Positions 4,402 to 26,750 of a DNA stretch of 26,750 bases are shown here, in pieces (the first letter of the stretch is position 1; every line of letters starts with the position of its first letter). A program made the position numbers and the translations under genes. Below the pieces are notes generated by a model. The model was given only the letters and a program-made list of their open reading frames with translations. It had not been told where the DNA came from and searched no databases. Origin of the DNA: a virus (taxonomy: Duplodnaviria; Heunggongvirae; Uroviricota; Caudoviricetes); the IMG/VR virus record IMGVR_UViG_2529293065_000012; one strand, 5' to 3'.

Positions 4402-4408
4402 ACCCACA

Positions 4409-4456: not shown

Positions 4457-4463
4457 CCACACC

Positions 4464-4655: not shown

Positions 4656-4766
4656 CTTCAACAGCTCATCCAGCAGCAAAACAAACTCCATTAATTCCTG
4701 TTCCGGGCCTTTCCTGCACCTTGCGGCGGGAGGCCTTCGCACATCTGTAACAAGAGGATTGCCGCA

Positions 4767-5132: not shown

Positions 5133-5138
5133 ATCACT

Positions 5139-10267: not shown

Positions 10268-10765
10268 TTATTTGTTTTTCCGTAAAGGATTAGCTTTCCA
10301 TCTTCTTACTAACCATTCGAATTCTTGATATGTAGTATCCGAATTAATGCTTTCTCTGATTGCTTTAATTAATGGCTCGGCAATATCATATGTCTCTACA
10401 ACTGTTGTGTAAGATGTTCTTTTTATCATTTTTTCATCATAAATACCTTCACGAATACTTACAGCAACTCGCTCGTAAAAATTTAAAATATATTGAAATT
10501 TTCGACGCTCGGCCATTTCCTCATCTGTTATTGTACAACCATCACAAGGAAAAACATAAGAACGAAATGATTTGCCTGAACGATGCACTTGTTTCAGGGT
10601 ATGCAATGACTCTATATATTGCATATCTTGCCGACTCTCAAAAAGAAAGTTAGCCGTTTGAGTTTTCTTTGCGGTACGCACATTGTAGATAATGGTTCCA
10701 ATGGCAACCAAAACGCCAAGCAGAACAATAGCATTGCTGATGATTTGTAGTGTTATTGGGTTCAT
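10268..10765 (-). CDS. Protein of unknown function with a single N-terminal TM helix (165 aa), first gene of an AT-rich accessory operon
   Basis: ATG at 10763-10765. N-terminal hydrophobic helix (IISNAIVLLGVLVAIGTIIY) then a soluble domain of about 135 aa. AT-rich. 39 bp from the downstream gene. Confidence 0.7.
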   Translation of the reverse strand: MNPITLQIISNAIVLLGVLVAIGTIIYNVRTAKKTQTANFLFESRQDMQYIESLHTLKQVHRSGKSFRSYVFPCDGCTITDEEMAERRKFQYILNFYERVAVSIREGIYDEKMIKRTSYTTVVETYDIAEPLIKAIRESINSDTTYQEFEWLVRRWKANPLRKNK

Positions 10766-11413: not shown

Positions 11414-12460
11414 TCAGGATGTGGGCAGGGTGTCTAACAGTGCGTAAGGGTTAAAGCGGATCACCTCTTCGCCAAGCCAGTCATTGATGTGCTTCATGGC
11501 CTCCATGACGGGCATCAGCTCGTTAATTGCGTAAACCCGCGCGGCCTTCTCCACATCACCAAACGCACTTTTTTCACCCGGCATCGCCCCCATCAGTTGC
11601 GGCGGAACGCGGTGCGCAGCCAGCACATCATCACGGGATGCCGCCTTAACATTCATGAACTCATCCTTTGCGGTGATCTGCTGGAACGGCAAAATTTGCA
11701 CCCCCTCTTTGCCCCCGTTGGGCGCATGAATGAGCACGTTTTTAAACGCACCACCACCACGCGCACCCTGTAGCGTTTCTTTCAGGGAGTCCATGCTTTC
11801 GCGGTTTACCTGCGCTGCACCGATGTAGATGATGCACCCGGCGTGGGATCCGTTGTCGTAATACAGTTTTCTGAACATGTCCGCCGAATGAGACAGGCTG
11901 GCCGAGAGTAATGCGCCGAGATATTCCGGCATGCCGTAGATTTCCTGGTTAATGTCCGGATTCATCAGGTGGCACACTTTGCCTGGGCGAAACTGAAACG
12001 CATCCTTGCCATCCTGCACATACCACCATGATTCAAGATCGCTTCCGCGTCGCATGTATTTCGCCAGGGCGTGCCGTAATTTAAGCGGTTCGCCGAGCAT
12101 ATTGCTTCGAAGCTCAAGGAATGCGTTACCGAACACAAACCAGTCCAGCGCCAGCGCCGAGAAATCCTGCCGGGAAAGCAGCGGGTGCGGGATGTAGCAA
12201 CCGAGCAATACATTGCGCTTAAAGTAAAGCGCAGACTGATGCCAGGACGTTTGCCGGGCGGCTCTTGCCAGACCGTACCAGTCCACCGGGGTTTCATACC
12301 ACCGCCCGTTATCAGCACAGTACATATTGTCCAGCAGGTCATGCCCGGTCAGGCGATAAGGACCATCAAATGTGAATGCACTGAGCGATGATTCTTTCCT
12401 GAGCGCATCAGCGAGATCAATGCGTGAACTCATGCGCACTTTTTTATTTTTTCTGCTCAT
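11414..12460 (-). CDS. Q: Portal protein (P2 gpQ family)
   Basis: 348 aa. Position and orientation beside the terminase ATPase gene, with ATGA overlap at 12458-12462. Length matches P2 Q. Confidence 0.9.
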   Translation of the reverse strand: MSRKNKKVRMSSRIDLADALRKESSLSAFTFDGPYRLTGHDLLDNMYCADNGRWYETPVDWYGLARAARQTSWHQSALYFKRNVLLGCYIPHPLLSRQDFSALALDWFVFGNAFLELRSNMLGEPLKLRHALAKYMRRGSDLESWWYVQDGKDAFQFRPGKVCHLMNPDINQEIYGMPEYLGALLSASLSHSADMFRKLYYDNGSHAGCIIYIGAAQVNRESMDSLKETLQGARGGGAFKNVLIHAPNGGKEGVQILPFQQITAKDEFMNVKAASRDDVLAAHRVPPQLMGAMPGEKSAFGDVEKAARVYAINELMPVMEAMKHINDWLGEEVIRFNPYALLDTLPTS

Positions 12461-14211
12461 CAGAACTCCATAACCGTGAAACGCTCGTTTTCTCCTTCGC
12501 CGCCAATTGGTTCGTTAATGACAGCAAGCATGGTTGCCCACGCAAGGTCGCCGTGGCTGATCCCCCTCGCGCGGTCCGTTTCGTAAGTGATAAAGCCGCC
12601 CGGTGTTTTCACCTTACGCACGGCGTTAAAGGCCGCGACCAGCTCGCGTTCGGCGCGATCGTATTCCCACCGCCCGGCACGCATTATTTGCAGCATTTTC
12701 AGTACCAGCGACCGTTTTGATGACAGCGTGAAGGTGTACGGAATAGCGGCAGGGAAAAACCGTTTCACTATCTGATAAACAGCCTCCCCGTTCCCGCCCG
12801 TCACATCAATGCCGATGTGTTCCACGTTGTAGCGACACGTGAACTCTTCAATGACTCTGGCCTGTTCTTCAAACTCCAGCCCCTGAACGCGTCGCGTCTC
12901 CACCGTTCGAAAACGGCCACCAGGAACAGACGGAGGAACCACCACGGACACAGCGCCGCTGTCGCCGTTGCCACTGCTGCCGTTTGCGTCATACCCAATC
13001 CATACCGGACGATTCCCCATCGGGCGGGGAGCAAAAGGTTTCCAGTCTTTCCAGTCGTCGTATCCGTCAACGCCACAGCCAATCAGGATATTCAGGTTAA
13101 ATGCCGATTCCCCTTCGCGGACAAACTCACACATATAGAGATTGAGGAACTCGTCTTCGGTGTTTTCATCACGAATTTCATCAATATCGGTGTGTTTCCA
13201 GCCGTGATTAACCACATCTTCCAGCGTGACAATTTGCCGCCACGTCCGGTCAGGGCAGATAAGCCCGTTATGCAGCGTTTTCCAGTCCACAGAAAAACGC
13301 TGGCGTTTATGCGAGGCCTTTTTCTCGTTCCAGCGGTCGCCGTTCCAGTAGGCGTATGCCTCGTGCGTTTCGGTGGATGGCGTGGAGAAGTAGGTGCGCC
13401 GCAGTCCGCTGAGGGTTGCCATAGCGCCAGCCACCTTGCGCAGTTCAGCAAAGCGACTGACCCAGAAAAATTCATCAAAATAAAAATTGCCCGTATAGGA
13501 CTGTGCCGACGCAGCAGAAGTGCCGAGAAAATGCAGCTCTGCGCCGTTGGAGAGGATGATTTTATCGCCCCCTTTCAGCTCCACATCAACTTCAGCCGCG
13601 GCCTTCTGAATAATGCTTTTAAACTGGAACGCCTGACGACGCGACGCAGACAAAAAAATCTGGTTACGCTGGTAAGGTTGCGCCACATCGTCACGCAGCG
13701 CCATCAGCAGTGCTTCCTGTGCAAAATACCAGGTCGCCCCAATCTGTCGGGATTTCAGGATCATCCTGTTACGTATCCCGGCTTCCCTGCAAAGGGTCAG
13801 GGAGTCAAACCAGCCCCGCTGATGCCACTCCAGCCTGCTGATGATTTTTTCCCGCAGTGCGGCAATCTGTTCCGGCGTGAAATGATTTTTGAGTTTTTTC
13901 GCCCGGCCTTTCTTTCCTGTGGCCGTCGCATCCGGCTGGCCATCATGCAGTTTTTTAAGCTGCCGGGTCAGCAGGTCTATTTCCTTGAAGTCACCACCTG
14001 TTTTATTCTGTTTTTCAGTGAGCTGGATGAGGCGCGCATCGATGGACTGCGTGACACGCTGCACGGGTGGCGTTTCATCCCACTGGTCGCGTTTTTTCCA
14101 CGCATAAATCGTGTTCGGGTTTATTCCCATCAGACGTGATATTTCTGCGGGCGGATAACCCTGCCAGTAAAGTTGCCGCGCACGCTGGCGCACAAAAGCG
14201 TCCTGAATCAT
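12460..14211 (-). CDS. P: Terminase large (ATPase) subunit (P2 gpP family)
   Basis: 583 aa. N-terminal MIQDAFVRQRARQLYWQGY... and length are typical of P2 P. Divergent from the O-N-M-L late operon. Confidence 0.9.
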   Translation of the reverse strand: MIQDAFVRQRARQLYWQGYPPAEISRLMGINPNTIYAWKKRDQWDETPPVQRVTQSIDARLIQLTEKQNKTGGDFKEIDLLTRQLKKLHDGQPDATATGKKGRAKKLKNHFTPEQIAALREKIISRLEWHQRGWFDSLTLCREAGIRNRMILKSRQIGATWYFAQEALLMALRDDVAQPYQRNQIFLSASRRQAFQFKSIIQKAAAEVDVELKGGDKIILSNGAELHFLGTSAASAQSYTGNFYFDEFFWVSRFAELRKVAGAMATLSGLRRTYFSTPSTETHEAYAYWNGDRWNEKKASHKRQRFSVDWKTLHNGLICPDRTWRQIVTLEDVVNHGWKHTDIDEIRDENTEDEFLNLYMCEFVREGESAFNLNILIGCGVDGYDDWKDWKPFAPRPMGNRPVWIGYDANGSSGNGDSGAVSVVVPPSVPGGRFRTVETRRVQGLEFEEQARVIEEFTCRYNVEHIGIDVTGGNGEAVYQIVKRFFPAAIPYTFTLSSKRSLVLKMLQIMRAGRWEYDRAERELVAAFNAVRKVKTPGGFITYETDRARGISHGDLAWATMLAVINEPIGGEGENERFTVMEF

Positions 14212-14365
14212 TGCTCCCCCTGAGTAATTACAGGAAGATTACCCGCGCGCGAAACCGTTCTCCTTAACCCCCTGTTCTGGCCGTTTTCTTACAACAAAAG
14301 CCCTTTGTATCAGCCTGTTACGCTTTGCCATCATGACTGAAGAACCAGTCAGAGGGGCAAAAACT
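14212..14365. promoter_or_regulatory. Divergent late promoter region (P-Q leftward, O-N-M-L rightward)
   Basis: Position equivalent to the divergent late promoters of P2. Individual promoter elements not resolved. Confidence 0.4.
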
Positions 14366-15202
14366 ATGGCTAATGAAAAAAAGACATCCCGCAAAAAGTT
14401 TCGCGTGGCTGTCTCCGGATCAACTGTTGATGGCCGCGAAATCAGCCCGGTACATCTGCGTGAAGCCGCCGAGAACTTCAACCCGGATGTTTACGCTGCC
14501 CGCGTGAACGTTGAGCACTATCTCTCGCCATGCCCGTCAAGCGAATTTTCCGCAATGGGCGATGTCACCGCGCTGAGTACGGAAGATATTACGGAAGGCC
14601 CGCTGGCCGGACGTACTGCGCTGTATGCAGAAATCGAACCGACCGAGCGCATGAAGCAGCTTGTCGCTGACGGCAAGAAAATCTATTCCAGTATCGAACT
14701 GCACCCGCAGTTCTCCGTTAACGGGCGTGCCTATCTGGTCGGACTGGCGATGACCGACACCCCGGCAAGCCTGGGCACTGAGCGCCTGAAATTCACGGCA
14801 CAGCAGCGTCAGGCGGTGATGACGTTCAACAGTATCCAGGGTGAAGCACCGCTTATCTCCGAAGCCATCGAGTCTGAAATCATCGAAATGGCAGAACAAC
14901 GCCAGGAAGAAGGCACCCAGTGGTTTAACCGCGTAATGGGGATTATTGGTCGTGGCCGCAAAGCGGATGACGCCAGTTTCTCCCGTATTCAGGAAGCGGT
15001 GGAAGGCGTTGCAACGTCACAGGCCGACATTATCGACCGTTTTAATGTGCTGGAAACCCGCCATCAGCAGGACCGCCAGAAAATCACGTCACTGACCACA
15101 GAGCTGACAGCACTGAAGGAAAAACTGCGCACGCAGGACGGCGATCCGCAGAACCGCTTCACCGCAACGGGCGCAGCCTCCGACCAGCTGGCTGACTTCT
15201 GA
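14366..15202 (+). CDS. O: Capsid scaffolding protein (P2 gpO family)
   Basis: ATG at 14366 inside ORF 14333..15202. KKFRVAVSGSTVDGREISP parallels the P2 O N-terminus. LVGLAMTDTPASLGTE is a conserved segment. Confidence 0.85.
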   Translation: MANEKKTSRKKFRVAVSGSTVDGREISPVHLREAAENFNPDVYAARVNVEHYLSPCPSSEFSAMGDVTALSTEDITEGPLAGRTALYAEIEPTERMKQLVADGKKIYSSIELHPQFSVNGRAYLVGLAMTDTPASLGTERLKFTAQQRQAVMTFNSIQGEAPLISEAIESEIIEMAEQRQEEGTQWFNRVMGIIGRGRKADDASFSRIQEAVEGVATSQADIIDRFNVLETRHQQDRQKITSLTTELTALKEKLRTQDGDPQNRFTATGAASDQLADF

Positions 15203-15225
15203 TAAGACAAAGGAGCAAATTTTTT

Positions 15226-16278
15226 ATGAATCTGGTGATGTCAGATATTACCCGCAACAAGCTGGGTTGCTATATGGCGCAGCAGGCGTCGCTTAATAAT
15301 ATCCCGGTTTCCGCACTGGTATCGCGATTTACCGTAGAACCCTCGGTGCAGCAGCGTTTTGAAAACGCCTCAAAGGAAAGTACCGAATTTACGAAAAGAA
15401 TTAACGTGATCGGCGTGACCGACCAGAAAGGCGAAAAAATCCTCCTGGATACCACAGGACCGATTGCGCGCACGAATACCAGTTATGACGGCACAAAACG
15501 CCGTAACCCGAATAACGTGGTTGATCTGAAAAACCGCAAATACCAGTGCGAACAGGTGAACTACGACACGTTTATTTCGTATCCGCAGCTTGATGCCTGG
15601 TCGGCACACCCTGATTTTCAGTCCCGCATCAGCGCACAGATTGCCCGACAGGTGGCACTTGACCGCATCATGATCGGTTTCAACGGCACGTCTCACGAGG
15701 ATGAGTCCAACTTCAGCACCAACAAGCTGCTTCAGGACGTTAACGTGGGGTGGCTGGAGCACATCAGAACCGACGCCAGCGAACGCGTTATGAATGACGT
15801 GACGCTGACCTCCCGTAACATGGACAACACCGTGGCGCACGCGGGTAAGTATGCGAACGCTGATGCACTGGTACAGGACGCGCGCTCATCCCTGCTGGAT
15901 GAATGGCACAAGGAAGCTGACGACCTCGTGGTGATTATGGGGCGCAACCTGTTTAACTCGCTGCGTCTGCCCGTGCTGAACAGCATCAGCGGCCAGAATC
16001 CCAATGCGGAATTACTTGCCGGGCAGCTCATCCTGTCATCGCGCACCATTGGCGGGCTGGGCGTGTTCCTTGCGCCGTTCTTCCCGGATGCGACGATGCT
16101 GATCACCTCGTTCAACAACCTGTCGATTTACTGGCAGAAAGGTTCAATGCGTCGTCTGATGAAAGACGAACCGGAATACAACCGCATCGCCACCTACCAG
16201 TCCATCAATGACGCTTATGTCGTTGAAGACTATGGCAAGTGCGCGATGGTCACAGGCCTGAAGTTCGCCGACAGCTAA
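15226..16278 (+). CDS. N: Major capsid protein (P2 gpN family)
   Basis: 350 aa. FTVEPSVQQ, GFNGT, VGWL, LVVIMGRNL, FFPDATMLIT and NLSIYW track P2 N. Confidence 0.9.
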   Translation: MNLVMSDITRNKLGCYMAQQASLNNIPVSALVSRFTVEPSVQQRFENASKESTEFTKRINVIGVTDQKGEKILLDTTGPIARTNTSYDGTKRRNPNNVVDLKNRKYQCEQVNYDTFISYPQLDAWSAHPDFQSRISAQIARQVALDRIMIGFNGTSHEDESNFSTNKLLQDVNVGWLEHIRTDASERVMNDVTLTSRNMDNTVAHAGKYANADALVQDARSSLLDEWHKEADDLVVIMGRNLFNSLRLPVLNSISGQNPNAELLAGQLILSSRTIGGLGVFLAPFFPDATMLITSFNNLSIYWQKGSMRRLMKDEPEYNRIATYQSINDAYVVEDYGKCAMVTGLKFADS

Positions 16279-16323
16279 TCAACTCACGGCGGGCATCATG
16301 CCCGCCTGTAACGGAGAGAAAAA

Positions 16324-17124
16324 ATGATTACTCCTGCACAGCAACACTGGCAGAACGTGATGGCACAGCGCGCAGGCCGGGCGAATGAAGGCGTGGACCA
16401 CGCCGCGCGTACCGCGCATGAAGAGGTGCTGTATCGTCTGCGTCTGGCACAGGCCCGGCTTAAGGGCGTACAGGCCAGAAGCGCGAAAGCCGCCATCAAA
16501 AAAGAGTTGTTGCCGGACTTTTCCGGCTGGATTGAGGGAACGCTGGAGGCTGACGGTGGGCAGCAGGATGAAGTGATTGCCACGCTGATGGTGTGGGCGA
16601 TTGACTGCGGCGATCTTCCGCTGGCGCTGCGTATTGGTGCATATGTGGTCCGTCACAACCTCATCATGCCGGATAACTTTGGCCGTACTGCTGCCACAGT
16701 GCTGACCGAAGAAATCTGCAATCCGGTACTGACGCAGGCCGGGACGGATGCCGACGCGGATTTGTCCGCCTTTATCGAACCACTGGACCCCCTCCGGGAG
16801 ATTGTCACCGACCAGGACATGCCGGACGAAGTGCGCGCCAAATTATGCAAGGCGTGTGCCTTTGCCCGTCGTGGCCTGACCGATGCAGACAGCATGGCCC
16901 TGTCACTGAAGCTGCTGCGCGAAGCGATGCACCTGAACCCGAACGCAGGTGTGAAACGCGAGATTGCAACCCTTTCCCGCGCCCTGAAGAAAGCCGATTC
17001 CGCAGCCGCACCAGAAGACGCCAGCGCACAGCAGGCGCAGGACGAAAGCAGCAAAAGTAAAAAGACAACGCGGAAGCCTGCAACACGAAAAACCACCGCG
17101 ACGCAGAAGGCGAAGCGCGGTTAA
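16324..17124 (+). CDS. M: Terminase small (endonuclease) subunit (P2 gpM family)
   Basis: 266 aa. Synteny after N; basic C-terminal tail. Confidence 0.85.
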   Translation: MITPAQQHWQNVMAQRAGRANEGVDHAARTAHEEVLYRLRLAQARLKGVQARSAKAAIKKELLPDFSGWIEGTLEADGGQQDEVIATLMVWAIDCGDLPLALRIGAYVVRHNLIMPDNFGRTAATVLTEEICNPVLTQAGTDADADLSAFIEPLDPLREIVTDQDMPDEVRAKLCKACAFARRGLTDADSMALSLKLLREAMHLNPNAGVKREIATLSRALKKADSAAAPEDASAQQAQDESSKSKKTTRKPATRKTTATQKAKRG

Positions 17125-17140
17125 CGACTGACCCCGTCAG

Positions 17141-17211
17141 CGGGCGGCGTGCGCGGTGTTCCGGTTTGACTCCGTGACCGTTTACACCGCGCACCCACCG
17201 CCCGATTTTTT
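17141..17211 (+). terminator. GC-rich stem-loop followed by a T6 run between M and L (candidate intra-operon terminator/attenuator)
   Basis: 11-bp perfect stem (17150-17160 / 17184-17194) with imperfect extensions, then TTTTTT at 17206-17211. Confidence 0.35.
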
Positions 17212-17225
17212 CAGGAGTGAACCCC

Positions 17226-17720
17226 ATGAGTATGGTTGCCAGAACCAACCCCGGACCCGCAGAGGACGACATCACCGATACCGATGATGGTGATACCCGT
17301 ATTTCAGCGGGCGCATTCTGGCCGGATATTGTGCTGCGTGAGCTGCGTCTGGCGGTACGACTGCCGGGCCGTGTGACCACCTCCCGCCTGCTGCATACCG
17401 CCACCGGGGCCGTGGCACACGTTACCCGCGAGCTGGAAGCGTGGCAGCAGGAACAGCAGGCGGCTGGCCATCAGACGCTGGCCGATGTTCCGGCACCCGT
17501 AATTAACGGAGAAAGCGTCAATCTCTGGCACTGGCGCAATGCTGTTTATACCGCCACACGCGCCCTGATTCTGGAGCGTTACCGCGATGCGGACACAACG
17601 GACAAGGGCGACCGCCGGGCGGACGCACTGGATATACAGACATCGGATTTGTGGCGCGATGTGAGCTGGGCCATCTCTGACATTCTGTGCCGCCCGCGAA
17701 TCTTTGCGGAGTTGTGCTGA
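17226..17720 (+). CDS. L: Head completion/stabilisation protein (P2 gpL family)
   Basis: ATG at 17226 with CAGGAG 8 nt upstream, inside ORF 17217..17720. Synteny. Confidence 0.85.
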   Translation: MSMVARTNPGPAEDDITDTDDGDTRISAGAFWPDIVLRELRLAVRLPGRVTTSRLLHTATGAVAHVTRELEAWQQEQQAAGHQTLADVPAPVINGESVNLWHWRNAVYTATRALILERYRDADTTDKGDRRADALDIQTSDLWRDVSWAISDILCRPRIFAELC

Positions 17721-17920
17721 TGAAAGTGAAGGCACTGGAAGGCGACACCGTGGATTCGCTCTGTTTCCGGTACTACGGCACGACGCAGGGCGTCACCGAA
17801 AAGGTGCTGGATGCCAACCCCGGACTCTGTCAGCAGGTAGTTCTGGACGCCGGGCAGGACGTGGAGATGCCGGAGCCGGAGAAGAAGAAACGAGAAATGA
17901 TTCAGTTGTGGGGGGGGTAG
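17720..17920 (+). CDS. X: Tail protein X (P2 gpX family)
   Basis: 66 aa. MKVKALEGDTVDSLCFRYYG...VLDANPGL parallels P2 X. Confidence 0.8.
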   Translation: MKVKALEGDTVDSLCFRYYGTTQGVTEKVLDANPGLCQQVVLDAGQDVEMPEPEKKKREMIQLWGG

Positions 17921-17922
17921 TA

Positions 17923-18246
17923 GTGAGCACCATTCAAACAGGGATCACAGAGCAGGTTATTGTGTGGCTCTTTGACCACCTGCCAACGGTGTATGCAGCA
18001 GGCGCGGCGGTCAGCATTTCCGCGCTGATGAGTCTTTATGACGGACGAACGCTGGTTCAGACCGTAACGGGATCGCTGGCGTGCGGCGTTCTTGCCATGG
18101 CCGTGGCCGGGTCGTTGCGCTTCTTCGGAGTTCCTGAAGATGCCGTGACGTTTTTCGGCGCATCTATCGGTTTTATGGGCGCAGAAAAAGCACGCGACAA
18201 GATCATTGCCGCCTTTAACCGCATAACCCAAAAGGGAGATGAATAA
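17923..18246 (+). CDS. Holin
   Basis: GTG start after a G7 run. Two to three hydrophobic helices and a charged C-terminus. Position between X and the endolysin. Confidence 0.7.
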   Translation: MSTIQTGITEQVIVWLFDHLPTVYAAGAAVSISALMSLYDGRTLVQTVTGSLACGVLAMAVAGSLRFFGVPEDAVTFFGASIGFMGAEKARDKIIAAFNRITQKGDE

Positions 18247-18300
18247 ATCGCAGGCTTAAAGCCGGTAATCACCATAAAAATCATTCACAGAGATGACGAA

Positions 18301-18846
18301 ATGAAATCGAAAGACGAAATTTTTGATGCCGTTCTTGGCAAAGAAGGCGGCTACGTCAATCACCCGGATGACAGAGGCGGTCCGACAAAATGGGGCATCA
18401 CTGAAAAGGTGGCACGGGCGCACGGATACCGTGGCGATATGCGTGATTTAACGCGCGGACAGGCACTGGAAATCCTTGAAGCTGATTACTGGTACGGACC
18501 GCGTTTTGATCAGATAGCGAAGCTGTCCCCGGATATTGCCGCAGAACTGTGTGACACCGGAGTAAATATGGGACCGTCTGTGGCAACCAGAATGCTTCAG
18601 CGCTGGCTGAACGCATTCAATCAGGGCGGGAAACTGTATCCCGATATGGACACAGACGGACGCACTGGCCCACGCACGATTAACGCATTACGTGCATATC
18701 TGGAAAAACGCGGTCGGGGCGGCGAGATGGTGATGTTAACAGCACTGAACTGTACACAGGGTGAACGCTATCTGGAGCTGGCGGAAAAACGCGAAGCCAA
18801 CGAGTCGTTTGTCTACGGCTGGATAAAGGAACGCGTGGCAGCATGA
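18301..18846 (+). CDS. Endolysin, GH108-type N-acetylmuramidase with a peptidoglycan-binding domain
   Basis: EGGYVNHPDDRGGPTKWGIT is the hallmark N-terminal motif of the GH108 family. Lies in the lysis cassette. Confidence 0.8.
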   Translation: MKSKDEIFDAVLGKEGGYVNHPDDRGGPTKWGITEKVARAHGYRGDMRDLTRGQALEILEADYWYGPRFDQIAKLSPDIAAELCDTGVNMGPSVATRMLQRWLNAFNQGGKLYPDMDTDGRTGPRTINALRAYLEKRGRGGEMVMLTALNCTQGERYLELAEKREANESFVYGWIKERVAA

Positions 18847-19250
18847 GGTTATGGACTTCTCTGGGCGTCGCTTTTCTTCTGATTGCCGCATGGGGAACAT
18901 CCATGCGTCTGTCGTGGTCGCTGGGCCGGGAGAACGCCAGAAACGAAGCGCAGGCCAGCACCCTGAAAAGTACCGTCGACACCCTGAATATCATCAGCGC
19001 CGGGGTACAGGATATGCAGCAGGTGCTGGCACAACTCCGCACGGAAAATCAGCAACGCAATCAGGACGGAGAGGCCAGACGTGAACAGCTACGCAACGAT
19101 ATTGCAAAAGATGAATGCGCCCACGCTTTGCCTGACGCTCGTTTTACTGACAGGTTGCGCAGGCACGCAGAACGCGCCACGGCCAGCGCCGTCAGTCCGG
19201 CTTATACCGCAGACGCTGACCATACCGGTAACGCCTCCCCCCTTCCCTGA
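18843..19250 (+). CDS. LysB-like inner-membrane spanin
   Basis: ATGA overlap with the endolysin stop. N-terminal TM helix then a coiled-coil-like region. Confidence 0.65.
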   Translation: MRLWTSLGVAFLLIAAWGTSMRLSWSLGRENARNEAQASTLKSTVDTLNIISAGVQDMQQVLAQLRTENQQRNQDGEARREQLRNDIAKDECAHALPDARFTDRLRRHAERATASAVSPAYTADADHTGNASPLP

Positions 19251-19401
19251 CACTCCCACATGGGGAAATCTCGGTATATGGGGCGACCGCCTTCTGGATG
19301 CACTGGAAACCTGTAACGCGGATAAACGGGCCATTGAATTACTGGAACAGCGCAGGCTGCAACGACTGAACAACGAGGACAACAACCATGCTGAAAACTG
19401 A
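19111..19401 (+). CDS. LysC-like outer-membrane lipoprotein spanin, overlapping the 3' end of lysB in another frame
   Basis: Signal peptide with lipobox LLTGC then a Pro-rich segment, inside ORF 19081..19401. Overlapping spanin arrangement as in P2 lysB/lysC. Confidence 0.65.
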   Translation: MNAPTLCLTLVLLTGCAGTQNAPRPAPSVRLIPQTLTIPVTPPPFPDTPTWGNLGIWGDRLLDALETCNADKRAIELLEQRRLQRLNNEDNNHAEN

Positions 19402-19855
19402 TTCCCTGCGTGAAGCCATGACCCGTTCATGCCGATGGTGTCAGGCCAACCCGGAAAAATTCACCATTTTCGTGGAGAGCGGCAACATTGAAACGACCGG
19501 AGAAACCCCATCGTTTGTTTACCGCTATCAGATGGTGATGTTTGTTATGGATTACGCCGGGGAGCTGGACGACCTCACGCTGCCGCTGCTGGCGTGGTTA
19601 TCCGAAAATCAGCCACAGTTGTTGCTCAACCCTGAGCGTAATCAGGACATCAAATTCTCCGCCGTTATCAATGACGATGACAGCGCCGATCTCCTGTTTA
19701 CGCTCCCCCTGCGGGAACGCGTTCGCATCACGCGCAGCAGTCAGGACACACCGCAGGCAGAACACCTGCCGGAGCCAAAACCCCGCCTGCCATCTTCCGA
19801 AGGCGACTGGTCGCATGTATTCCAGGATGTGACGTGGGGTGAAAGCGATGGATAA
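19388..19855 (+). CDS. R: Tail completion protein (P2 gpR family)
   Basis: 155 aa. Synteny and length match P2 R. Confidence 0.85.
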   Translation: MLKTDSLREAMTRSCRWCQANPEKFTIFVESGNIETTGETPSFVYRYQMVMFVMDYAGELDDLTLPLLAWLSENQPQLLLNPERNQDIKFSAVINDDDSADLLFTLPLRERVRITRSSQDTPQAEHLPEPKPRLPSSEGDWSHVFQDVTWGESDG

Positions 19856-20483
19856 GGCATTCACCCGCGTGGATGAAACCTTTGAGGCCATCCGCGACAG
19901 CCTGAATCAGCAGGCCATCAATAACATCGCCAGAAAGCTGGCACAGGATTTACGCCGCGCCCAGCAGGCGCGTATCCGGTCACAGAAAGCGCCGGACGGG
20001 ACCGCGTGGACACCACGCAGACGCCGCGTAACCCGGATACAGGAGCGCATTCGCTTTATCTGGAATAACGAAGCACGCACGCTGAAAAACTGGCATCACG
20101 ACACGGGGAAATACGGGCAAACCATTACCGGGTGGGATGAGGATAAAAACAATATCCGCACGTTTTACCGGGATGACATCGACCGTTTTCTGGAAATACG
20201 CACCCGGCGCATCAACCAGGACAGCACAAAGCGCGTCCCCATGTTCGTAAAACTGCGCACCGCCCGCTACCTGAAAGCCCGTGCAGATGCTTCCGGTGTG
20301 ACGGTGGGTTACAGCGGCGTGGCCGCACGTATTGCACGCGTTCATCAGTTCGGTGAGCGCGATCAAGTTGCGCCGGGCATTTTCACCGATTACCCGGTAC
20401 GTGAGCTGCTGGGTATCAGCCAGGCAGATGAGCGCCTGATTTATAACACGGTGCTGGGCCGGATTGCGGAGGCTGTACGGTGA
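19839..20483 (+). CDS. S: Tail completion / virion morphogenesis protein (P2 gpS family)
   Basis: Synteny. Overlaps the R stop. Confidence 0.8.
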   Translation: MKAMDKAFTRVDETFEAIRDSLNQQAINNIARKLAQDLRRAQQARIRSQKAPDGTAWTPRRRRVTRIQERIRFIWNNEARTLKNWHHDTGKYGQTITGWDEDKNNIRTFYRDDIDRFLEIRTRRINQDSTKRVPMFVKLRTARYLKARADASGVTVGYSGVAARIARVHQFGERDQVAPGIFTDYPVRELLGISQADERLIYNTVLGRIAEAVR

Positions 20484-21061
20484 GCGCAGAACTCATGCGA
20501 CTGCTGAGCAACATCATTCGCACCGGGATCATCTCTGAAGTTGATGAGAAGTCCTGGCGCGTGCGCGTTCGCAGCGGCGAACTGGAAACAGGCTGGCTGC
20601 GCTGGAACACCACGCGCGCGGGAGCCTTCAATGTGTGGCTGCCGCCATCACCAGGCGAACAGGTGGTAATTGCCTGCATTGGCGGCAACCCGGAAACCGC
20701 CATGATAATTGGCAGCCTGTGGAGTGATGCCAGTCCGGCCCCCGGCAAAAGCCTGAAAGAAATCGTGGTCAGCGCGCCGGATGGCGCGGTGTTCCGCTAC
20801 GACGCAGACGCTGGCGCACTGAGCGCCAGCGGCATGAAAACAGCCACCCTGCAGGCATCCGTCAGCGTGACACTGGATACGCCCGTCGTGGAATGCACAG
20901 ACCTTCTGAGAACAGCGACGCTTGACGTCACAAAAGGGGGAAAGATGAGCGGCAATATCACGCACAGCGGCGGCGATTTCACCTCAAACGGCATCACAGT
21001 GCATACGCATAAGCACGGTGGCGTTAAAGGTGGCAGCGATTCGACAGGAGGCCCGCAGTGA
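20480..21061 (+). CDS. V: Baseplate spike protein (P2 gpV family)
   Basis: 193 aa. ATGA-type overlap with S. C-terminal HTHKHGG-like Gly/His-rich apex. Confidence 0.85.
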   Translation: MSAELMRLLSNIIRTGIISEVDEKSWRVRVRSGELETGWLRWNTTRAGAFNVWLPPSPGEQVVIACIGGNPETAMIIGSLWSDASPAPGKSLKEIVVSAPDGAVFRYDADAGALSASGMKTATLQASVSVTLDTPVVECTDLLRTATLDVTKGGKMSGNITHSGGDFTSNGITVHTHKHGGVKGGSDSTGGPQ

Positions 21062-21408
21062 CAACCCGCTACACAGGAATGAATCCGGACGGGACGGGAA
21101 ACCTGAACGATACGGAGCACCTGAAACAGTCAGTCAGGGACATCCTGACCACCCCGCTGGCAAGCCGGGTTATGCGACGGGAATATGGCAGCCTTGTGCC
21201 TGATTTAATTGACGAACCCATGAATAACACCACGCGTCTGCAATGCATGAGTGCTGCCGTGATTGCGCTGACACGATGGGAACCCCGCATTGCCCTGGAC
21301 GCCATCGACGTTGTCTGGAAGGCAGGAGGCCGCGCCGGGGTGACGCTGTCGGGCACTGTCATGCAGACCATGCAGAATGTTGAATTAACCATCACGCTAA
21401 GGGAGTAA
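21058..21408 (+). CDS. W: Baseplate wedge protein (P2 gpW / gp25-like)
   Basis: 116 aa. Synteny. Overlaps the V stop. Confidence 0.85.
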   Translation: MTTRYTGMNPDGTGNLNDTEHLKQSVRDILTTPLASRVMRREYGSLVPDLIDEPMNNTTRLQCMSAAVIALTRWEPRIALDAIDVVWKAGGRAGVTLSGTVMQTMQNVELTITLRE

Positions 21409-21411
21409 ATC

Positions 21412-22308
21412 ATGCCTGCTGTTGACCTTTCCCAGTTACCGGAACCCGCCATCATCGCGGAGCCTGATTTTGAGGCAATTCTGGCTGACACAAAGGCCAT
21501 GATGATTGCGTCCTATCCTGCCGAACAGCGTGAAGCCGTCTCCGCCGCGCTGGAGCTGGAATCGGAACCCCTGAACGTTATCGCTCAAACCATGTCTTTT
21601 CGTGAAATGCTGTTACGCCAGCGGGTCAATGAGGGTGCACGCGCCTGCATGCTAAGCCACAGCGCTGGGACAGACCTGGACAACCTCGCGGGCAATATGA
21701 ACACAAAGCGCCTGGTTATCACTCCGGCAACGGATACCACCGACGCAGTGATGGAAAGTGACACCTCGCTGAGACTACGGGCGCAACGGGCATATGACGG
21801 TCTGAGTGTTGCTGGCCCGTCAGGTGCATACGAGTATTTTGCACGCAGCGCCAGCGGTCTGGTACGCGATGCGCGGGCCATCAGCCCGTCTCCGGCCAAC
21901 GTGACGGTTTCCATCCTGTCCACTGAGGGCGACGGCACAGCAACGGGGGCGTTGCTTAATACCGTTCGCGCCGTTCTGAATGCAGAGGATACCCGCCCGG
22001 TGGCCGACCGCCTGACCGTACAGAGTGCCAGAATCGTGACATGGCGGCTGAATGCAAAACTGTACTTTTACCCCGGCCCGGAATCCGAACCTATTCTGGC
22101 CGCGGCAGAATCGTCGTTCAGGAAGTGGCTGTCTGAGCAGGGGCTTATCGGTCAGGACGTGGCGTTGTCAGCCATTGCTGCCGCACTGCATGTGCACGGT
22201 GTGCAACGCGTGGAGATAATCGAACCCACACAAAATATGGCCATCAGCGACATACAGGCGGCGCGCTGTGAGTCATTCACCATCAGCGAAGGTGGGCGTA
22301 ATGAGTAA
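21412..22308 (+). CDS. J: Baseplate protein J
   Basis: 298 aa. Synteny and length match P2 J. Confidence 0.9.
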   Translation: MPAVDLSQLPEPAIIAEPDFEAILADTKAMMIASYPAEQREAVSAALELESEPLNVIAQTMSFREMLLRQRVNEGARACMLSHSAGTDLDNLAGNMNTKRLVITPATDTTDAVMESDTSLRLRAQRAYDGLSVAGPSGAYEYFARSASGLVRDARAISPSPANVTVSILSTEGDGTATGALLNTVRAVLNAEDTRPVADRLTVQSARIVTWRLNAKLYFYPGPESEPILAAAESSFRKWLSEQGLIGQDVALSAIAAALHVHGVQRVEIIEPTQNMAISDIQAARCESFTISEGGRNE

Positions 22309-22831
22309 TTCACTGTTACCGCCATCAGCCAGCAATTTCATGCGTTGTGCCGAAGCTGTCGGAACGCGCATTACAGACATTCCGGTAGACCTCAACACAC
22401 TGTGGTCGCCGGACACCTGCCCGGTGCATCTGCTGCCTTATCTCGCCTGGGCATTTTCCGTTGACCGCTGGGATCGCAACTGGCCGGAAGAGACAAAGCG
22501 ACAGGTGATTCGTGATGCATGGCTGATACACCGACACAAAGGGACCATCAGCGCACTGCGCCGGGCCATTGAGCCGCTGGGATACCTCATTCGTGTGTCT
22601 GAGTGGTGGGAGTTCGGCGGAGAACCGGGAACATTTACCGTTGAAGTCGGCACGCTGGAGAGTGGCGTGACGGAGGAAATGTATCTGGAAATGGAGCGGT
22701 TGATTGCTGATGCCCGCCCGGTCAGCCGCCACATGACAGGGCTGAATATCATTCAGGAGATCCCGGGGGATATTTTCGCGGCGGCAGCAACTTACGACGG
22801 TGAAGTCATTACCATTTATCCGGACGATTAA
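22301..22831 (+). CDS. I: Baseplate/tail protein I
   Basis: ATG at 22301 with AAGGTGG upstream, inside ORF 22268..22831. Synteny. Confidence 0.85.
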   Translation: MSNSLLPPSASNFMRCAEAVGTRITDIPVDLNTLWSPDTCPVHLLPYLAWAFSVDRWDRNWPEETKRQVIRDAWLIHRHKGTISALRRAIEPLGYLIRVSEWWEFGGEPGTFTVEVGTLESGVTEEMYLEMERLIADARPVSRHMTGLNIIQEIPGDIFAAAATYDGEVITIYPDD

Positions 22832-22833
22832 GC

Positions 22834-25140
22834 ATGAGTACCACAACACGAAAATTTAAAACCATTATCACTGATACTGGTGCCAAAAAATTAGCTCAGG
22901 CAGCCGCGCCAGGTGGTAATCCTGTCCGCCTGACTCACATGGCCGTGGGCGACGGTGGCGGCACGTTGCCCACACCAGACAGTAAGCAGACCCGTCTGGT
23001 GCATGAGGTGTGGCGACATACTGTTAATCGCGTCATCCTGGACGCAACACATCAGAACCGCATTATTGCGGAGCTGGTTATTCCTCCTGAAACGGGCGGA
23101 TTCTGGATCCGGGAAATTGGTGTATTTGATGAGCACGGCGATTTAATCGCGGTGGGCAATACTGCCGAAAGTTACAAACCAACCGTTGCCGAAGGGTCCG
23201 GACGTGCACAAACATTTCGCACCATTCTGACCGTATCCAGCACTGCCACCGTGGCGCTTACCGTGGATAACACCATGGTGATGGCCACAGTGGATTACGT
23301 GGATGACAAACTGAAAGAGCATGAACAGTCACGACGTCACCCGGATGCCTCGCTGACCGCAAAAGGCTTTGTTCAACTCAGTAGCGCCACTAACAGCGAT
23401 TCTGAAACGCTGGCTGCAACGCCGAAAGCGGTTAAGGCCGCGTATGACCTGGCTAACGGAAAATATACCGCTCAGGACGCCACGACGGCACGAAAAGGGA
23501 TAGTCCAGCTCAGCAGTGCAACCAACAGCACGTCTGAAACGCTGGCTGCGACACCAAAAGCGGTTAAGGCGGTAATGGATGAAACGAACAAGAAAGCGCC
23601 CTTAAATAGTCCTGCACTGACCGGAACGCCAACAACGCCAACTGCGCCAAAAGGTACTAATAATACTCAGATCGCAAGTACGGCTTATGTGATGGCCGCG
23701 ATTGCCGCCCTTGTAGACTCGTCGCCTGACGCACTGAATACGCTGAACGAGTTAGCGGCGGCGCTGGGCAACGACCCGAATTTTGCGACCACCATGACTA
23801 ACGCGCTTGCGGGTAAGCAACCGAAAGATGCCACCCTGACGGCGCTGGCCGGGCTTGCTACTGCGGCAGACAGGTTTCCGTATTTTACGGGGAATGATGT
23901 CGCCAGCCTGGCAACCCTGACAAAAGTCGGGCGGGATATTCTTGCGAAATCGACCGTTGCTGCCGTTATCGAATACCTCGGTTTGCAGGAAACGGTAAAT
24001 AAGGCTTCTGGCGCATTACAGAAAAACCAGAACGGCGCAGATATTCCCGATAAAAAACTATTCCTGCGTAATATCGGCACAACAAATTCAACAACCATGT
24101 CTTTTAGTGGTGGTGCTGGATGGTTCAAACTGGCAACTGTAACAATGCCACAAGCCAGTTCCGTGGTTTACATAAGCCTGATTGGTGGCGCAGGGTATAA
24201 CGTTGGCTCCTCGCATCAAGCAGGCATCTCTGAGCTGGTTCTGCGTGCCGGAAATGGGAATCCAAAAGGTATTACTGGTGCATTATGGCGACGGACCTCG
24301 GTTGGATTTACTCATTTTGCATGGGTGAATACATCCGGTGATACCTATGACATTTATGTAGAAATAGGTAATTACGCCACAGGTGTTAATATTCAGTGGG
24401 ATTATACCAGTAACGCCAGCGTAACGATTCATACATCACCAACTTATACAGCGAATAAACCAACAGGCCTGACAGATGGAACTGTATATGTAATTTACAG
24501 TTCGCACATTAAACCGACTGCTGCTGAGGTTGGGGCGTTGTCATTATCTGGCGGTCAATTGAATGGTGCACTGGGCATCGGAACATCCAGTGTTCTTGGC
24601 GGTAACTCGATTGTTTTGGGGGATAATGATACTGGTTTCAAACAGAACGGCGATGGCCTTCTTGATGTTTATGCTAATAGTCAGCATGTATTCCGTTTCC
24701 AGAATGGCGTGGCTATTGCTTTAAAAAACATTCAGGCCGGAGATGGTAAAAAACTCTCGCTATCAAGCTCCAACAACTCCACAAAGAATGCAAGGTTTAA
24801 TTTATGGGGTAATTCATCCCGCCCCGTAGTTGCAGAACTTGGTGATGATTCAGGTTGGCATTTTTATAGTCAAAGAAATACAGATAATTCAGTATTGTTC
24901 TCCGTTAACGGTCAGATAAACCCCAACAACTGGAGTAACTTTGATTCTCGTTATGTGAGAGATGTCCGACTTGGTACACGTGTTGTTCAGACTATGCAAA
25001 AAGGCGTGATGTATGAGAAATCAGGTCATGCAATTACGGGGCTTGGCATTATTGGCGCTGTTGATGGCGATGATCCGGCTGTATTCAGACCAATACAAAA
25101 ATACATCAATGGCACATGGTATAACGTCGCACAGGTATAA
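22834..25140 (+). CDS. H: Tail fibre protein (P2 gpH family); constant N-terminal part joined to a switchable C-terminal part
   Basis: 768 aa. Conserved N-terminus. Internal duplicated LSSATNS-SETLAATPKAVKA motif. A recombination-site-like sequence at 23966-23993 marks the constant/variable junction. Confidence 0.9.
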   Translation: MSTTTRKFKTIITDTGAKKLAQAAAPGGNPVRLTHMAVGDGGGTLPTPDSKQTRLVHEVWRHTVNRVILDATHQNRIIAELVIPPETGGFWIREIGVFDEHGDLIAVGNTAESYKPTVAEGSGRAQTFRTILTVSSTATVALTVDNTMVMATVDYVDDKLKEHEQSRRHPDASLTAKGFVQLSSATNSDSETLAATPKAVKAAYDLANGKYTAQDATTARKGIVQLSSATNSTSETLAATPKAVKAVMDETNKKAPLNSPALTGTPTTPTAPKGTNNTQIASTAYVMAAIAALVDSSPDALNTLNELAAALGNDPNFATTMTNALAGKQPKDATLTALAGLATAADRFPYFTGNDVASLATLTKVGRDILAKSTVAAVIEYLGLQETVNKASGALQKNQNGADIPDKKLFLRNIGTTNSTTMSFSGGAGWFKLATVTMPQASSVVYISLIGGAGYNVGSSHQAGISELVLRAGNGNPKGITGALWRRTSVGFTHFAWVNTSGDTYDIYVEIGNYATGVNIQWDYTSNASVTIHTSPTYTANKPTGLTDGTVYVIYSSHIKPTAAEVGALSLSGGQLNGALGIGTSSVLGGNSIVLGDNDTGFKQNGDGLLDVYANSQHVFRFQNGVAIALKNIQAGDGKKLSLSSSNNSTKNARFNLWGNSSRPVVAELGDDSGWHFYSQRNTDNSVLFSVNGQINPNNWSNFDSRYVRDVRLGTRVVQTMQKGVMYEKSGHAITGLGIIGAVDGDDPAVFRPIQKYINGTWYNVAQV
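23966..23993. other. gix/hix-like crossover site for a Gin/Hin/Cin-family serine invertase, inside gene H
   Basis: TTATCGAATACCTCGGTTTGCAGGAAAC closely matches phage Mu gixL as I recall it (TTATCCAAAACCTCGGTTTACAGGAAAC). Confidence 0.6.
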
Positions 25141-25143
25141 TTT

Positions 25144-25671
25144 ATGCAGCATTTAAAAAATATTACTGCAGGTAATCCCAAAACTATCGAACAGTATCAA
25201 CTTACAAAAGAATTTGATGTTATCTGGTTATGGTCCGAAGACGGAAAAAACTGGTATGAGGAAGTGAAAAACTTTCAGCCAGACACAATAAAGATTGTTT
25301 ACGATGCAAATAATATTATTGTCGCCATCACCAAAGATGCCTCCACGCTTAACCCTGAAGGTTATAGCGTCGTTGAGGTTCCAGATATTACAGCCAACCG
25401 CCGCGCTGATGATTCCGGTAAGTGGATGTTTAGGGACGGAGCTGTGGTTAAACGGATTTATACGGCAGACGAGCAACAACAACAGGCCGAATCACAAAAG
25501 GCCGCGTTGCTTTCTGAAGCTGAAAGCGTTATTCAGCCACTGGAACGCGCTGTCAGGCTGAATATGGCGACGGATGAGGAGCGTACACGACTGGAGTCAT
25601 GGGAACGCTACAGCGTTCTGGTCAACCGTGTGGATACAGCAAAGCCCGAATGGCCACAAAAGCCTGAATAA
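25144..25671 (+). CDS. Tail fibre assembly chaperone (gpG/Tfa family), expressed in the current orientation
   Basis: 175 aa. Immediately follows H. N-terminal 40 aa nearly identical to the inverted copy. Confidence 0.85.
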
Positions 25672-25676
25672 AAATT

Positions 25677-25696
25677 AAGGCCCGCTATCGGGCCTT
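25677..25696. terminator. Stem-loop (AAGGCCCG / CGGGCCTT) between convergent tail-fibre assembly genes
   Basis: 8-bp stem with a 4-nt loop, flanked by A/T-rich runs on both sides. Confidence 0.45.
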
Positions 25697-25699
25697 GTC

Positions 25700-26233
25700 T
25701 CATTCAGGTTGTTCGGGAAATATTACTGGCAGGCTGGAGGTGTCTGTAGATTCGACTTTCTGCGCATAGAGCATCCACTCGGTTAATTTTTGTTTATTCT
25801 CGTCGGAAATGATGCCCAGCCGTAGCTGTGAGTCCCATAGCTGTGTTTTATCCCTGACGAGCTGTAGCAGGCTTTGCTTTTCATTTTCCGCTTGTTGCCT
25901 CTGCTCTTCCTCGGTATAAGTTCGCTTTATCACTACGCCATCTTTGAACATCCAGTTGCCGGAAATATCAGCGCGTCGGTTTGCCGTAATATTGGGTAAC
26001 TCAACCACACTCATTCCCTCTGGATTAATCAGGGATACATCTTTCTCAATACAGCAAATAACACCCTCCTGGTTATATGCCACTTTTAACGTGTCAGGCT
26101 GGAAATTTTTCTGTTCCTCATACCAGTTCTTACCTTCTTCCGACCATAACCAGACAACATCAAATTCTTTTGTAAGTTGATACTGTTCGATAGTTTTGGG
26201 ATTTCCTGCTTTAATATTTTTTAAATGCTGCAT
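25700..26233 (-). CDS. Alternative tail fibre assembly chaperone (inverted orientation)
   Basis: ATG at 26231-26233 inside ORF 25700..26242. N-terminus [30 protein letters not shown] is near-identical to the plus-strand tfa. Confidence 0.8.
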   Translation of the reverse strand: MQHLKNIKAGNPKTIEQYQLTKEFDVVWLWSEEGKNWYEEQKNFQPDTLKVAYNQEGVICCIEKDVSLINPEGMSVVELPNITANRRADISGNWMFKDGVVIKRTYTEEEQRQQAENEKQSLLQLVRDKTQLWDSQLRLGIISDENKQKLTEWMLYAQKVESTDTSSLPVIFPEQPE

Positions 26234-26234
26234 A

Positions 26235-26750
26235 TTAAGCACGTCCTACATTGTACCAATGACCATTAATATATTTCTGAACAGGAGCGTAGACAGGCCA
26301 TTCTCTCGAATCATCAAAGTTGCCACCTGTCAGAACGTATCCGGCTGGAACCGTTCCGCCATCACCACCCCAGACAATCCCACTCTGGTTAGCACCCATG
26401 CGAACGTCACGAACATAGCGTGAGTCAAAATTACCATAATTGCCGGGAATAATTTGCGAGCCGCAAAGCCAATTCCCGTTATTATCCATGTACGCCTGAC
26501 CATCGGTGCCATTGTCTGTCCTTGAGTTATTAATCATGTAGATGCCAAATTCCCTATTCCCCAGTCCACCAATCATAAATTTGCGGTCAGCATGGTCCTG
26601 ACGTAGCAATGCCTGGGCGCTATCAGTTTTAACTATATTTCTCCCAAAGATAGCGTTGTTATCGCGCATCTGAATCCACATACCATTACTGCTGTTAATA
26701 GCAAAACGGTTTGCAAATATATCCCCTGTAACATCAAGACCATGCCCCAT
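26235..26750 (-). CDS. Alternative tail-fibre C-terminal (variable) segment, 5'-truncated by the window edge; probably expressed only after inversion
   Basis: ORF runs off the window. C-terminal NFDSRYVRDVRMG ... PVQKYINGHWYNV matches the H C-terminus. Confidence 0.75.
   Translation of the reverse strand: MGHGLDVTGDIFANRFAINSSNGMWIQMRDNNAIFGRNIVKTDSAQALLRQDHADRKFMIGGLGNREFGIYMINNSRTDNGTDGQAYMDNNGNWLCGSQIIPGNYGNFDSRYVRDVRMGANQSGIVWGGDGGTVPAGYVLTGGNFDDSREWPVYAPVQKYINGHWYNVGRA

Follow-up and report, generated by a model that had tools for sequence, protein, structure and literature searches.

The window, i.e. the whole stretch of 26,750 nt that was analysed, ends in a tail-fibre region where a fibre gene and its chaperone gene are followed by a second chaperone gene and a second fibre end in inverted orientation. 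The features are listed below by position.

22834–25140, plus strand: fibre ORF 'H' as assembled, 768 aa (ORF list; Pfam PF12571 and PF03406)
23531–23546, no strand: parent-switch interval, with H alleles of a P2-like prophage to the left and stf alleles of an N15-like plasmid to the right (allele table)
23966–23991, plus strand: left gix-like site, TTATCGAATACC TC GGTTTGCAGGAA, with the central dinucleotide at 23978–23979
23980–25140, plus strand: Sv, expressed variable fibre end (blastp)
25143–25292, plus strand: inverted repeat of the tfa and tfa' 5′-ends, left arm (repeat search)
25144–25671, plus strand: tfa, fibre assembly chaperone of the expressed end (Pfam PF02413, blastp)
25677–25696, no strand: G+C-rich hairpin AAGGCCCGATAGCGGGCCTT between the convergent tfa genes (terminator-like hit on the minus strand)
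25700–26233, minus strand: tfa', chaperone of the silent fibre end (Pfam PF02413, blastp)
26085–26234, minus strand: right arm of the inverted repeat (repeat search)
26235–26750, minus strand: Sv', silent alternative fibre end, last 171 codons, cut by the window edge

The 768-aa ORF includes fibre repeats and the crossover site in addition to a P2-type N-terminal collar domain and the expressed variable end. The first-pass annotation had placed a close match to Mu gixL at the junction of the constant and variable parts, and both statements held on comparison. The sequence TTATCGAATACCTCGGTTTGCAGGAAAC at 23966–23993 occurs once in the window with 0 occurrences expected from shuffled sequences, and a chance match was thus rejected. 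Its 26-bp core shares 23 of 26 bases with the real Mu sites, taken as TTATCCAAAACCTCGGTTTACAGGAA flanking G on both sides in AF083977.1, and the bases following the core (ACGGTAAA) also agree with Mu. The site is located at codon 378 of the ORF, where it encodes the peptide VIEYLGLQETV, and relatives are collinear with the window only up to about 24006–24047 and divergent thereafter. A scan of the window with the looser pattern AAACCNNGGTTT, one mismatch allowed, returned only this known site, which argues against a multi-site shufflon within the window; a second crossover site is likewise absent within it.

Both variable ends are accompanied by their own chaperone gene of the Caudo_TAP family and share one constant 5′ part, which is the layout of Mu-G-type cassettes. 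The C-terminal 193 aa of Sv were 80% identical to the P2 H C-terminus, and identity of tfa was 91% with Mu U and 90% with P2 G, that of tfa' 87% with Mu U' and 58% with tfa (blastp). Full-length Sv', of about 326 codons in total, was seen in two related sequences (L005 and L037) and was 69% identical to Mu S by blastp, its DNA matching the S genes of Mu, P1 and D108; in the window's own contig the Sv' reading frame remains open through the 60 additional bases that follow the window. The predicted order of tfa on the plus strand, an inverted second tfa and an inverted promoterless fibre end cut at the window edge was thereby recovered: the silent pair is without a 5′ part of its own, as in Mu-G-type cassettes. 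A promoter scan, with fewer hits than in shuffled sequences, was uninformative. The two tfa genes do share an inverted 5′ region, yet instead of the proposed near-identical stretch of about 120 bp it measures 150 nt with 90% complementarity. The hairpin at 25677–25696 has a perfect stem read from either strand and is likely a terminator.

The source contig stops 60 nt past the window, and the right part of the cassette was accordingly read from identical copies in other assemblies. L005 and L006 matched positions 23975–26750 with 100.000% identity across 2776 nt, the block lying in the opposite orientation with respect to the flanks of these copies, and the identity begins at 23975 inside the left site. 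In the identical copies the inverted second site is found 466–491 nt beyond the window end (L005 118–143, L037 1043–1068), reading TTCTCAAAAACC TC GGTTT[A/G]CAGGAA on the minus strand, and a 184-aa Gin-family serine invertase gene begins 556 nt beyond the window end; in L005 and L006 this protein (PF00239 and PF02796) is followed by ParB and SopA. Each site on its own strand reads ACC TC GGTTT across the same central dinucleotide, an identity that allows religation once the ends have rotated by 180 degrees. The two inverted 26-bp sites each have imperfectly symmetric 12-bp half-sites on either side of a 2-bp core, and the right one is outside both the window and its contig. The inverted site and the invertase of about 190 aa that the first-pass annotation sought just beyond 26750 are therefore both present in the 100%-identical copies of other assemblies, but not in the actual record, where the contig ends too early.

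Orientation could be read from the same copies. The Sv DNA of the window constitutes a silent 385-aa ORF beside the invertase in L005 and L006, and when L006 was flipped in silico between the central dinucleotides the product equalled window positions 23461–26750 continued by L037, without a single mismatch beyond the first 70 nt. The window and L037 hence represent one state, and L005, L006 and L035 the other. The constant part is open in frame with Sv in the window (768 codons) and with Sv' in L006 (503 codons, to the contig end) and L035 (1011 codons). Both junction types were moreover met within single assemblies: L005 1–136 is the exact reverse complement of L005 3375–3510, and L022 1–1074 is the reverse complement of 4096–5169 at 99.3%. 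Such hairpin-shaped contig starts could be assembler errors at inverted repeats. The cassette has only the 26-bp sites and about 20 nt of flanking similarity, and assembler error of this kind is disfavoured because exact identity between the cassette ends is shorter than about 20 nt. Since identical DNA occurs in both orientations with an exact flip between the site centres, the switch is, judged from these sequences, real and active, and its assignment to the Gin/Cin/Pin-type invertible fibre cassettes was confirmed.

The window from 23966 to 26750 would accordingly cover, from the left end, 85% of an invertible tail-fibre cassette of the Gin type that is 3.25 kb long and in which a small serine invertase is expected to cut at the central TC of the two inverted 26-bp sites and to flip the intervening DNA. 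In one state the constant part is fused in frame to Sv, a P2-H-like tip, followed by the chaperone tfa, and in the other to Sv', a Mu-S-like tip, followed by tfa'. Switching of the tip may change the receptor recognised by the phage.

The closest known design is the G segment of Mu with Gin, which has the same order (Sc, gix, Sv, U, then on the minus strand U', Sv' and gix, and the invertase), 23 of 26 site bases with the same central TC, and a comparable size of about 3.06 kb between the Mu sites. The differences are that the carrier here is an N15-like plasmid prophage or a P2-like prophage and not a transposable phage, that the plasmid invertase is only 56% identical to Gin, that the outer right half-site of the plasmid cassette is TTCTCAAAAACC versus TTATCCAAAACC in Mu, and that the pairing of tip and chaperone is shuffled, with an S-like end found here next to a U'-like chaperone. 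The C segment of P1 and P7 (Cin) and the P segment of e14 (Pin) are alike in design and site family, and P1 and P7 S/Sv' DNA matches the silent fibre end at 77–90%; the P1 C segment has long inverted repeats of 0.6 kb. Phage P2 shares the baseplate and fibre module V-W-J-I-H-G and carries in H, at the same place, a gix-like sequence with two mismatches to that of the window, but is devoid of tfa', Sv', a second site and an invertase and represents a fixed one-state version; a single gix-like site in H is for this reason insufficient evidence of a switch. Among complete E. coli genomes and phage records none contained the fibre region of the window at >80% coverage, the best being 92.6% identical.

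Two invertases are relevant to the locus, both encoded outside the window: the 184-aa protein of the N15-like plasmid and a 195-aa protein of the P2-like prophage on the next contig, both with PF00239 and PF02796 domains. Both genes are intact, with Ser9 conserved in the motif YxRVST and an HTH_7 domain, and identity to Mu Gin is 56% for the plasmid protein and 85.6% for the prophage protein. The best match among solved structures was Gin (E = 2e-62), against 2e-31 for gamma-delta resolvase, and database names for the cluster of the 184-aa protein include 'Pin-like' and 'e14 prophage'. In Mu and Hin the recombinational enhancer consists of two Fis sites that act in cis and are situated in the 5′ portion of the invertase gene. 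The first 250 nt of the prophage gene are nearly identical to Mu gin DNA, so the Mu enhancer is presumably kept there, and the plasmid gene is much more diverged; no convincing pair of conserved sites emerged from a loose scan with the Fis consensus. The invertase-specific residues in contact with Fis and the enhancer are Gln151, Arg154 and Leu155 of Hin together with basic residues 47, 48 and 51 (PMC3798978). By alignment to Gin, with the Hin-to-Gin numbering inferred by us, the Q..RL motif is present in both invertases (EQVGRL, EQIARL), and at the helix-B positions the 195-aa protein has K-R-K and the 184-aa protein D-K-K, so that the latter has lost one basic residue. We infer invertase activity, dependence on Fis and the enhancer, and the effect on host range alike.

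The left part of the window has a different ancestry. Up to 23530 it is 97% identical to a prophage of E. coli FDN-11 and to Citrobacter phage Shae_phiSM, P2-like (Xuanwuvirus/P88-type) prophages that carry H, tfa, tfa', Sv', an invertase, gpU and the tape measure; inversion in P2-like prophages has been shown experimentally and measured in EPEC E2348/69 (PMC4272514). The allele table places a change of parent at 23531–23546: at 23481–23530 the window equals L016 at 7/7 informative positions, and at 23547–23964 it equals L006 and L035 at 31/31. The constant part upstream of the site thus carries plasmid stf alleles instead of the prophage's own. The complete relatives of this plasmid are N15-like, linear plasmid prophages with a lambda-like tail, stf, the 184-aa invertase, ParB, SopA and protelomerase, and the constant parts of stf and H are roughly 94% similar. 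A start of this similarity exactly at the switch point would have spoken for an artefact, but the argument was dropped, as in L035 the similarity begins at about 23361.

The native cassette of the P2-like prophage, of the same design with different alleles, opens the following contig of this assembly, APYZ01000035.1 (contig 35), in the order Sv', tfa', tfa, Sv, 195-aa invertase, gpU, tape measure. Siblings L016 and L009 read from the P2-like prophage straight into this native cassette, and the cassette of the window is the plasmid's, unlike the one carried in the sibling strains. When homologues of the native 247-aa Sv' were sought, the proteins listed were all cluster representatives that differed from it in length, the exact protein not being among them, and a look-up of tfa gained just one further sibling fragment. 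Of the 146 blocks with the 184-aa invertase, the 24 with the longest contigs did not include the plasmid contig from the assembly to which the window belongs.

Given the stf alleles from about 23531 and the native segment with its invertase on the next contig, the 768-aa 'H' is most likely an assembly chimera. We therefore read 23966–26750, with good though not full confidence, as a Gin-type cassette that probably belongs to the N15-like plasmid and became attached in silico to H, a gene of the chromosomal P2-like prophage, the junction presumably arising through the similar constant parts of the two fibre genes. The original placement of the segment inside a P2-like gene H is then probably incorrect from 23531 onwards, and the 768-aa 'tail protein' in the deposited record probably does not exist as such. 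It also counts for a chimera that the window's contig closes with an exact 110-nt repeat of native Sv from contig 35. Counting against a chimera, the switch of parents falls in just 16 nt of shared identity: a k-mer assembler would need reads carrying such a switch, and only an overlap-consensus assembler or bubble merging could produce it.

The short interval is also what speaks for a window that was assembled correctly, in which case a double crossover with the co-resident plasmid prophage would have given the P2-like prophage most of the cassette together with the 3′ constant part, the left exchange being at 23531–23546 and the right one in a 131-nt identity between plasmid Sv' and native Sv, so that H would truly read into this cassette with the 195-aa prophage invertase beyond. 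The switch is clean as well as short, fibre modules are notoriously mosaic (tfa being close to both Mu U and P2 G), and the last 110 nt of the window's contig (contig 34) exactly repeat native Sv on contig 35 on the same strand (L022 3593–3702), beyond which the N-terminal portion of native Sv follows on contig 35, then the right site, the 195-aa invertase and finally gpU; a recombinant product is thus topologically possible. However, the same assembly still contains the native Sv', tfa' and tfa (L022 1263–3098), which the exchange would have removed, and there is just a single P2-like prophage to which they could belong, with one gpI-bearing contig per assembly. The siblings show the native arrangement, L009 having a different patch of plasmid alleles (23610–23670) within an otherwise native H, as expected from consensus mixing, and the exact 768-aa protein is known from one contig only. 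Homologous recombination would moreover be expected in the 146-nt identity at 23755–23900 and not in a 16-nt interval. A correct assembly was for these reasons considered unlikely. Slightly less credit still was given to what it would entail, namely that a host-range cassette has just moved, without a base change over >3.2 kb, from a linear plasmid prophage to a chromosomal P2-like myovirus prophage; were the mosaic true, the donor would be of siphovirus type and in the same cell, and recombination would have used the common constant part and the Sv/Sv' homology as its arms.

A frozen relic that keeps the site and the inverted tfa' and Sv' yet has stopped inverting, like P2 or invertase-less relatives, could draw on the lone site of P2 H, on the FDN-11 relative with its truncated invertase pseudogene and on the relative L012, which lacks the cassette and goes from H and tfa directly to gpU, but is highly improbable and largely refuted by identical DNA in both orientations with an exact flip at the site centres, by both junction types within single assemblies and by the two intact invertase genes.

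Invertible fibre cassettes such as Mu G, P1 C and e14 P belong to textbook knowledge, and the Mu-G-type switch described here, being a known kind of system, adds little as biology. With 146 blocks of a contig collection containing the exact 184-aa invertase, N15-like plasmid prophages with a side-tail-fibre flip-switch appear common in E. coli; no paper joining the terms 'N15-like', 'tail fiber' and 'invertase' was found in the open-access literature. What the preferred reading, a plasmid cassette joined in silico to H, brings forward is one cell in which two replicons bear compatible cassettes, both with the same left site and each served by a Gin-family invertase of its own. Short-read assemblies of such two-cassette genomes would yield chimeras of fibre genes, contigs with a hairpin-shaped start and consensus sequences with alleles in patches.

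The prophage carried by the window is P2-like and encodes an integrase, gpA, portal, terminase and capsid genes, a lysis module, and the tail genes R, S, V, W, J and I. The fibre ORF (H as assembled) is followed by a chaperone gene tfa (+), the second chaperone gene tfa' (-), and a minus-strand fibre ORF running off the window, in the gene order reported by the first-pass annotation. The gpA-portal interval is a frequent location of accessory or anti-phage genes in P2-like phages, and for the two minus-strand genes found there PADLOC returned only a weak Csx27 match (E = 4e-5).

8023-8982 (+): 319-aa ParM/StbA actin-like segregation protein (PF06406 + PF21523, E = 1e-81), inside the integrated prophage, directly downstream of replication gene gpA
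9386-10228 (-): 280-aa protein without Pfam match, between gpA and the portal gene
10268-10765 (-): 165-aa DUF4760 protein, between gpA and the portal gene
22834-25140: fibre ORF (H), 768 codons, from the ORF list

The 28-mer at 23966-23993, which had been read as a gix-like site at the constant/variable junction of H, occurs once in the window, above chance expectation. Its 26-bp core agrees in 23 of 26 bases with both true Mu sites (TTATCCAAAACCTCGGTTTACAGGAA, taken from AF083977.1), ACGGTAAA directly after the core is common to the window and Mu, and the collinearity of relatives breaks off at the site, in support of that reading. The inverted similarity at the 5'-ends of tfa and tfa' was also present, extending over 150 nt at 90% identity instead of a near-identical 120 bp or so; the two proteins are 58% identical overall with nearly identical first 50 residues, and a G+C-rich hairpin lies between the genes. 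Window-wide searches gave no second site. A lone site in H is not proof of a switch, since P2 H has one (2 mismatches) where both the partner site and the invertase are absent.

Two other contigs, L005 and L006, were found by exact-protein look-up of tfa', and they are 100.000% identical to window 23975-26750 over 2776 nt, in inverted orientation relative to their flanks. In both, the silent fibre end is about 326 codons in full length and is followed by a second site on the opposite strand (TTCTCAAAAACC TC GGTTT.CAGGAA), a 184-aa Resolvase + HTH_7 protein, ParB and SopA. The Logan contig L037 overlaps the end of the window's contig with full identity over 637 nt and extends the window's orientation through Sv' (an alternative variable fibre end), site, invertase, ParB, SopA and protelomerase, which projects the second site to about 27216-27241 and the invertase gene start to about 27306 in window numbering. 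The inverted site and the invertase expected just beyond 26750 are thus found in identical copies; the window's own contig, APYZ01000034.1 (GCA_000358875.1), stops just 60 nt past the window end.

Both orientations were found among assembled contigs. An in-silico inversion of L006, with the central dinucleotides of its sites as end points, matched window 23461-26750 joined to L037 with 0 mismatches past the first 70 nt. L005 opens with a stretch exactly reverse-complementary to the flank on its invertase side, so that both junction types occur in one read set. Two states of the cassette therefore exist, and they differ by a conservative exchange at the centres of the sites.

Where relatives of L005 and L006 are complete, they are linear plasmid prophages of the N15-like kind, with lambda-type tail genes, J, Lom, a 945-1011-aa Stf, tfa, tfa', Sv', invertase, ParB, SopA and protelomerase. 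The same P2-like prophage occurs in sibling assemblies, apparently of the E. coli P0302308.x series, where it runs into a different cassette of 721-aa H, tfa, tfa', 247-aa Sv', 195-aa invertase, gpU and tape measure. Alleles of the plasmid side-tail-fibre gene (stf) and of the prophage change over within H:

12301-23546: 3 differences from the prophage of sibling L016
23481-23530: prophage allele at 7/7 informative positions
23547-24002: 34 differences from the prophage of sibling L016
23547-23964: plasmid stf allele (L006 and independent sample L035) at 31/31 informative positions

The parent switch at 23531-23546 is contained in the second copy of a 96-nt direct repeat in H (23343-23438 and 23475-23570, 76% identity), which encodes a recurring SSATNS.SETLAATPKAVKA motif (Pfam Phage_fiber_2).

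In the window's own assembly the native cassette opens the next contig, APYZ01000035.1, with Sv'N, tfa'N, tfaN and SvN (native counterparts of the fibre ends and chaperones), site, 195-aa invertase, gpU, tape measure, and tube and sheath genes. The window's contig ends with 110 nt that exactly repeat native SvN on APYZ01000035.1, which is why it stops there. Window 23531-26750 most likely derives from the plasmid prophage and was linked in silico to H of the P2-like prophage. A genuine recombinant from a double crossover is possible on topological grounds; native Sv', tfa' and tfa, still present in that assembly with its single P2-like prophage, contradict it. The segment is invertible as first proposed but probably does not belong to H, given the plasmid stf alleles. 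The start of APYZ01000035.1 is hairpin-shaped too, with both junction types: positions 1-1074 are an inverted copy (1.07 kb) of its own invertase-gpU flank at 4096-5169. The native cassette is therefore shown flanked by the invertase at either end, an arrangement that no single molecule can have, and reads containing both orientations are the likely cause. In sibling L009 (GCA_000357765.2), the plasmid stf allele is found at 11 consecutive informative positions, in the stretch corresponding to window 23610-23670, and the remainder of H is native, a pattern that would be expected of either a mixed-read consensus or gene conversion.

The nearest solved structure to the 184-aa protein is the Mu invertase Gin (E = 2e-62, versus 2e-31 for gamma-delta resolvase), with 56% identity to Mu Gin. 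Ser9 is kept, as are the Q..RL residues specific to Fis-dependent invertases (PMC3798978), and 2/3 of the basic helix-B residues. A loose Fis-consensus scan of its gene for an enhancer gave no convincing conserved site pair. The 195-aa invertase of the prophage shares 85.6% identity with Gin, and across the first 250 nt its gene hardly differs from gin. Cross-action between the two invertases in one cell is plausible, since invertases of the Gin kind complement one another.

Two sites, alternative in-frame fusions, paired chaperones, an intact invertase adjoining the cassette, and both orientations are in evidence. By analogy with Mu, P1 and Hin, invertase dimers on both sites would synapse at a Fis-bound enhancer and cleave the DNA at the central dinucleotide; a 180-degree rotation and religation would follow. 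The virion tip would then be either P2 H-like or Mu S-like, as one variable tip resembles P2 H (80% identity, last 193 aa) and the other Mu S (69%).

In close relatives the switch was lost by different routes: E. coli FDN-11 (L001, 8217-8633) keeps both sites with the invertase as a truncated pseudogene, and in L012 (GCA_023190755.1) H and one tfa are followed directly by gpU, cassette and invertase being absent. Citrobacter phage Shae_phiSM (L002) has a 778-nt unannotated gap from tfa' to invertase (6947-7724) at the expected position of the silent fibre end, and searching this locus with up to 3 mismatches gave just one site. L029 (GCA_013363225.1), a contig with similarity to the plasmid prophage, carries, about 5 kb past the first invertase, a second Resolvase-domain gene and another Gp34_trimer fibre fragment (11861-12555); either a second cassette or a rearrangement could account for them.

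This type of system is already well known: DNA invertases are annotated in related phages, and fibre segment inversion in E. coli P2-like prophages has been measured experimentally (PMC4272514). No open-access paper was found in which 'N15-like', 'tail fiber' and 'invertase' occur together. The main gain is the warning that the contig is probably chimeric.
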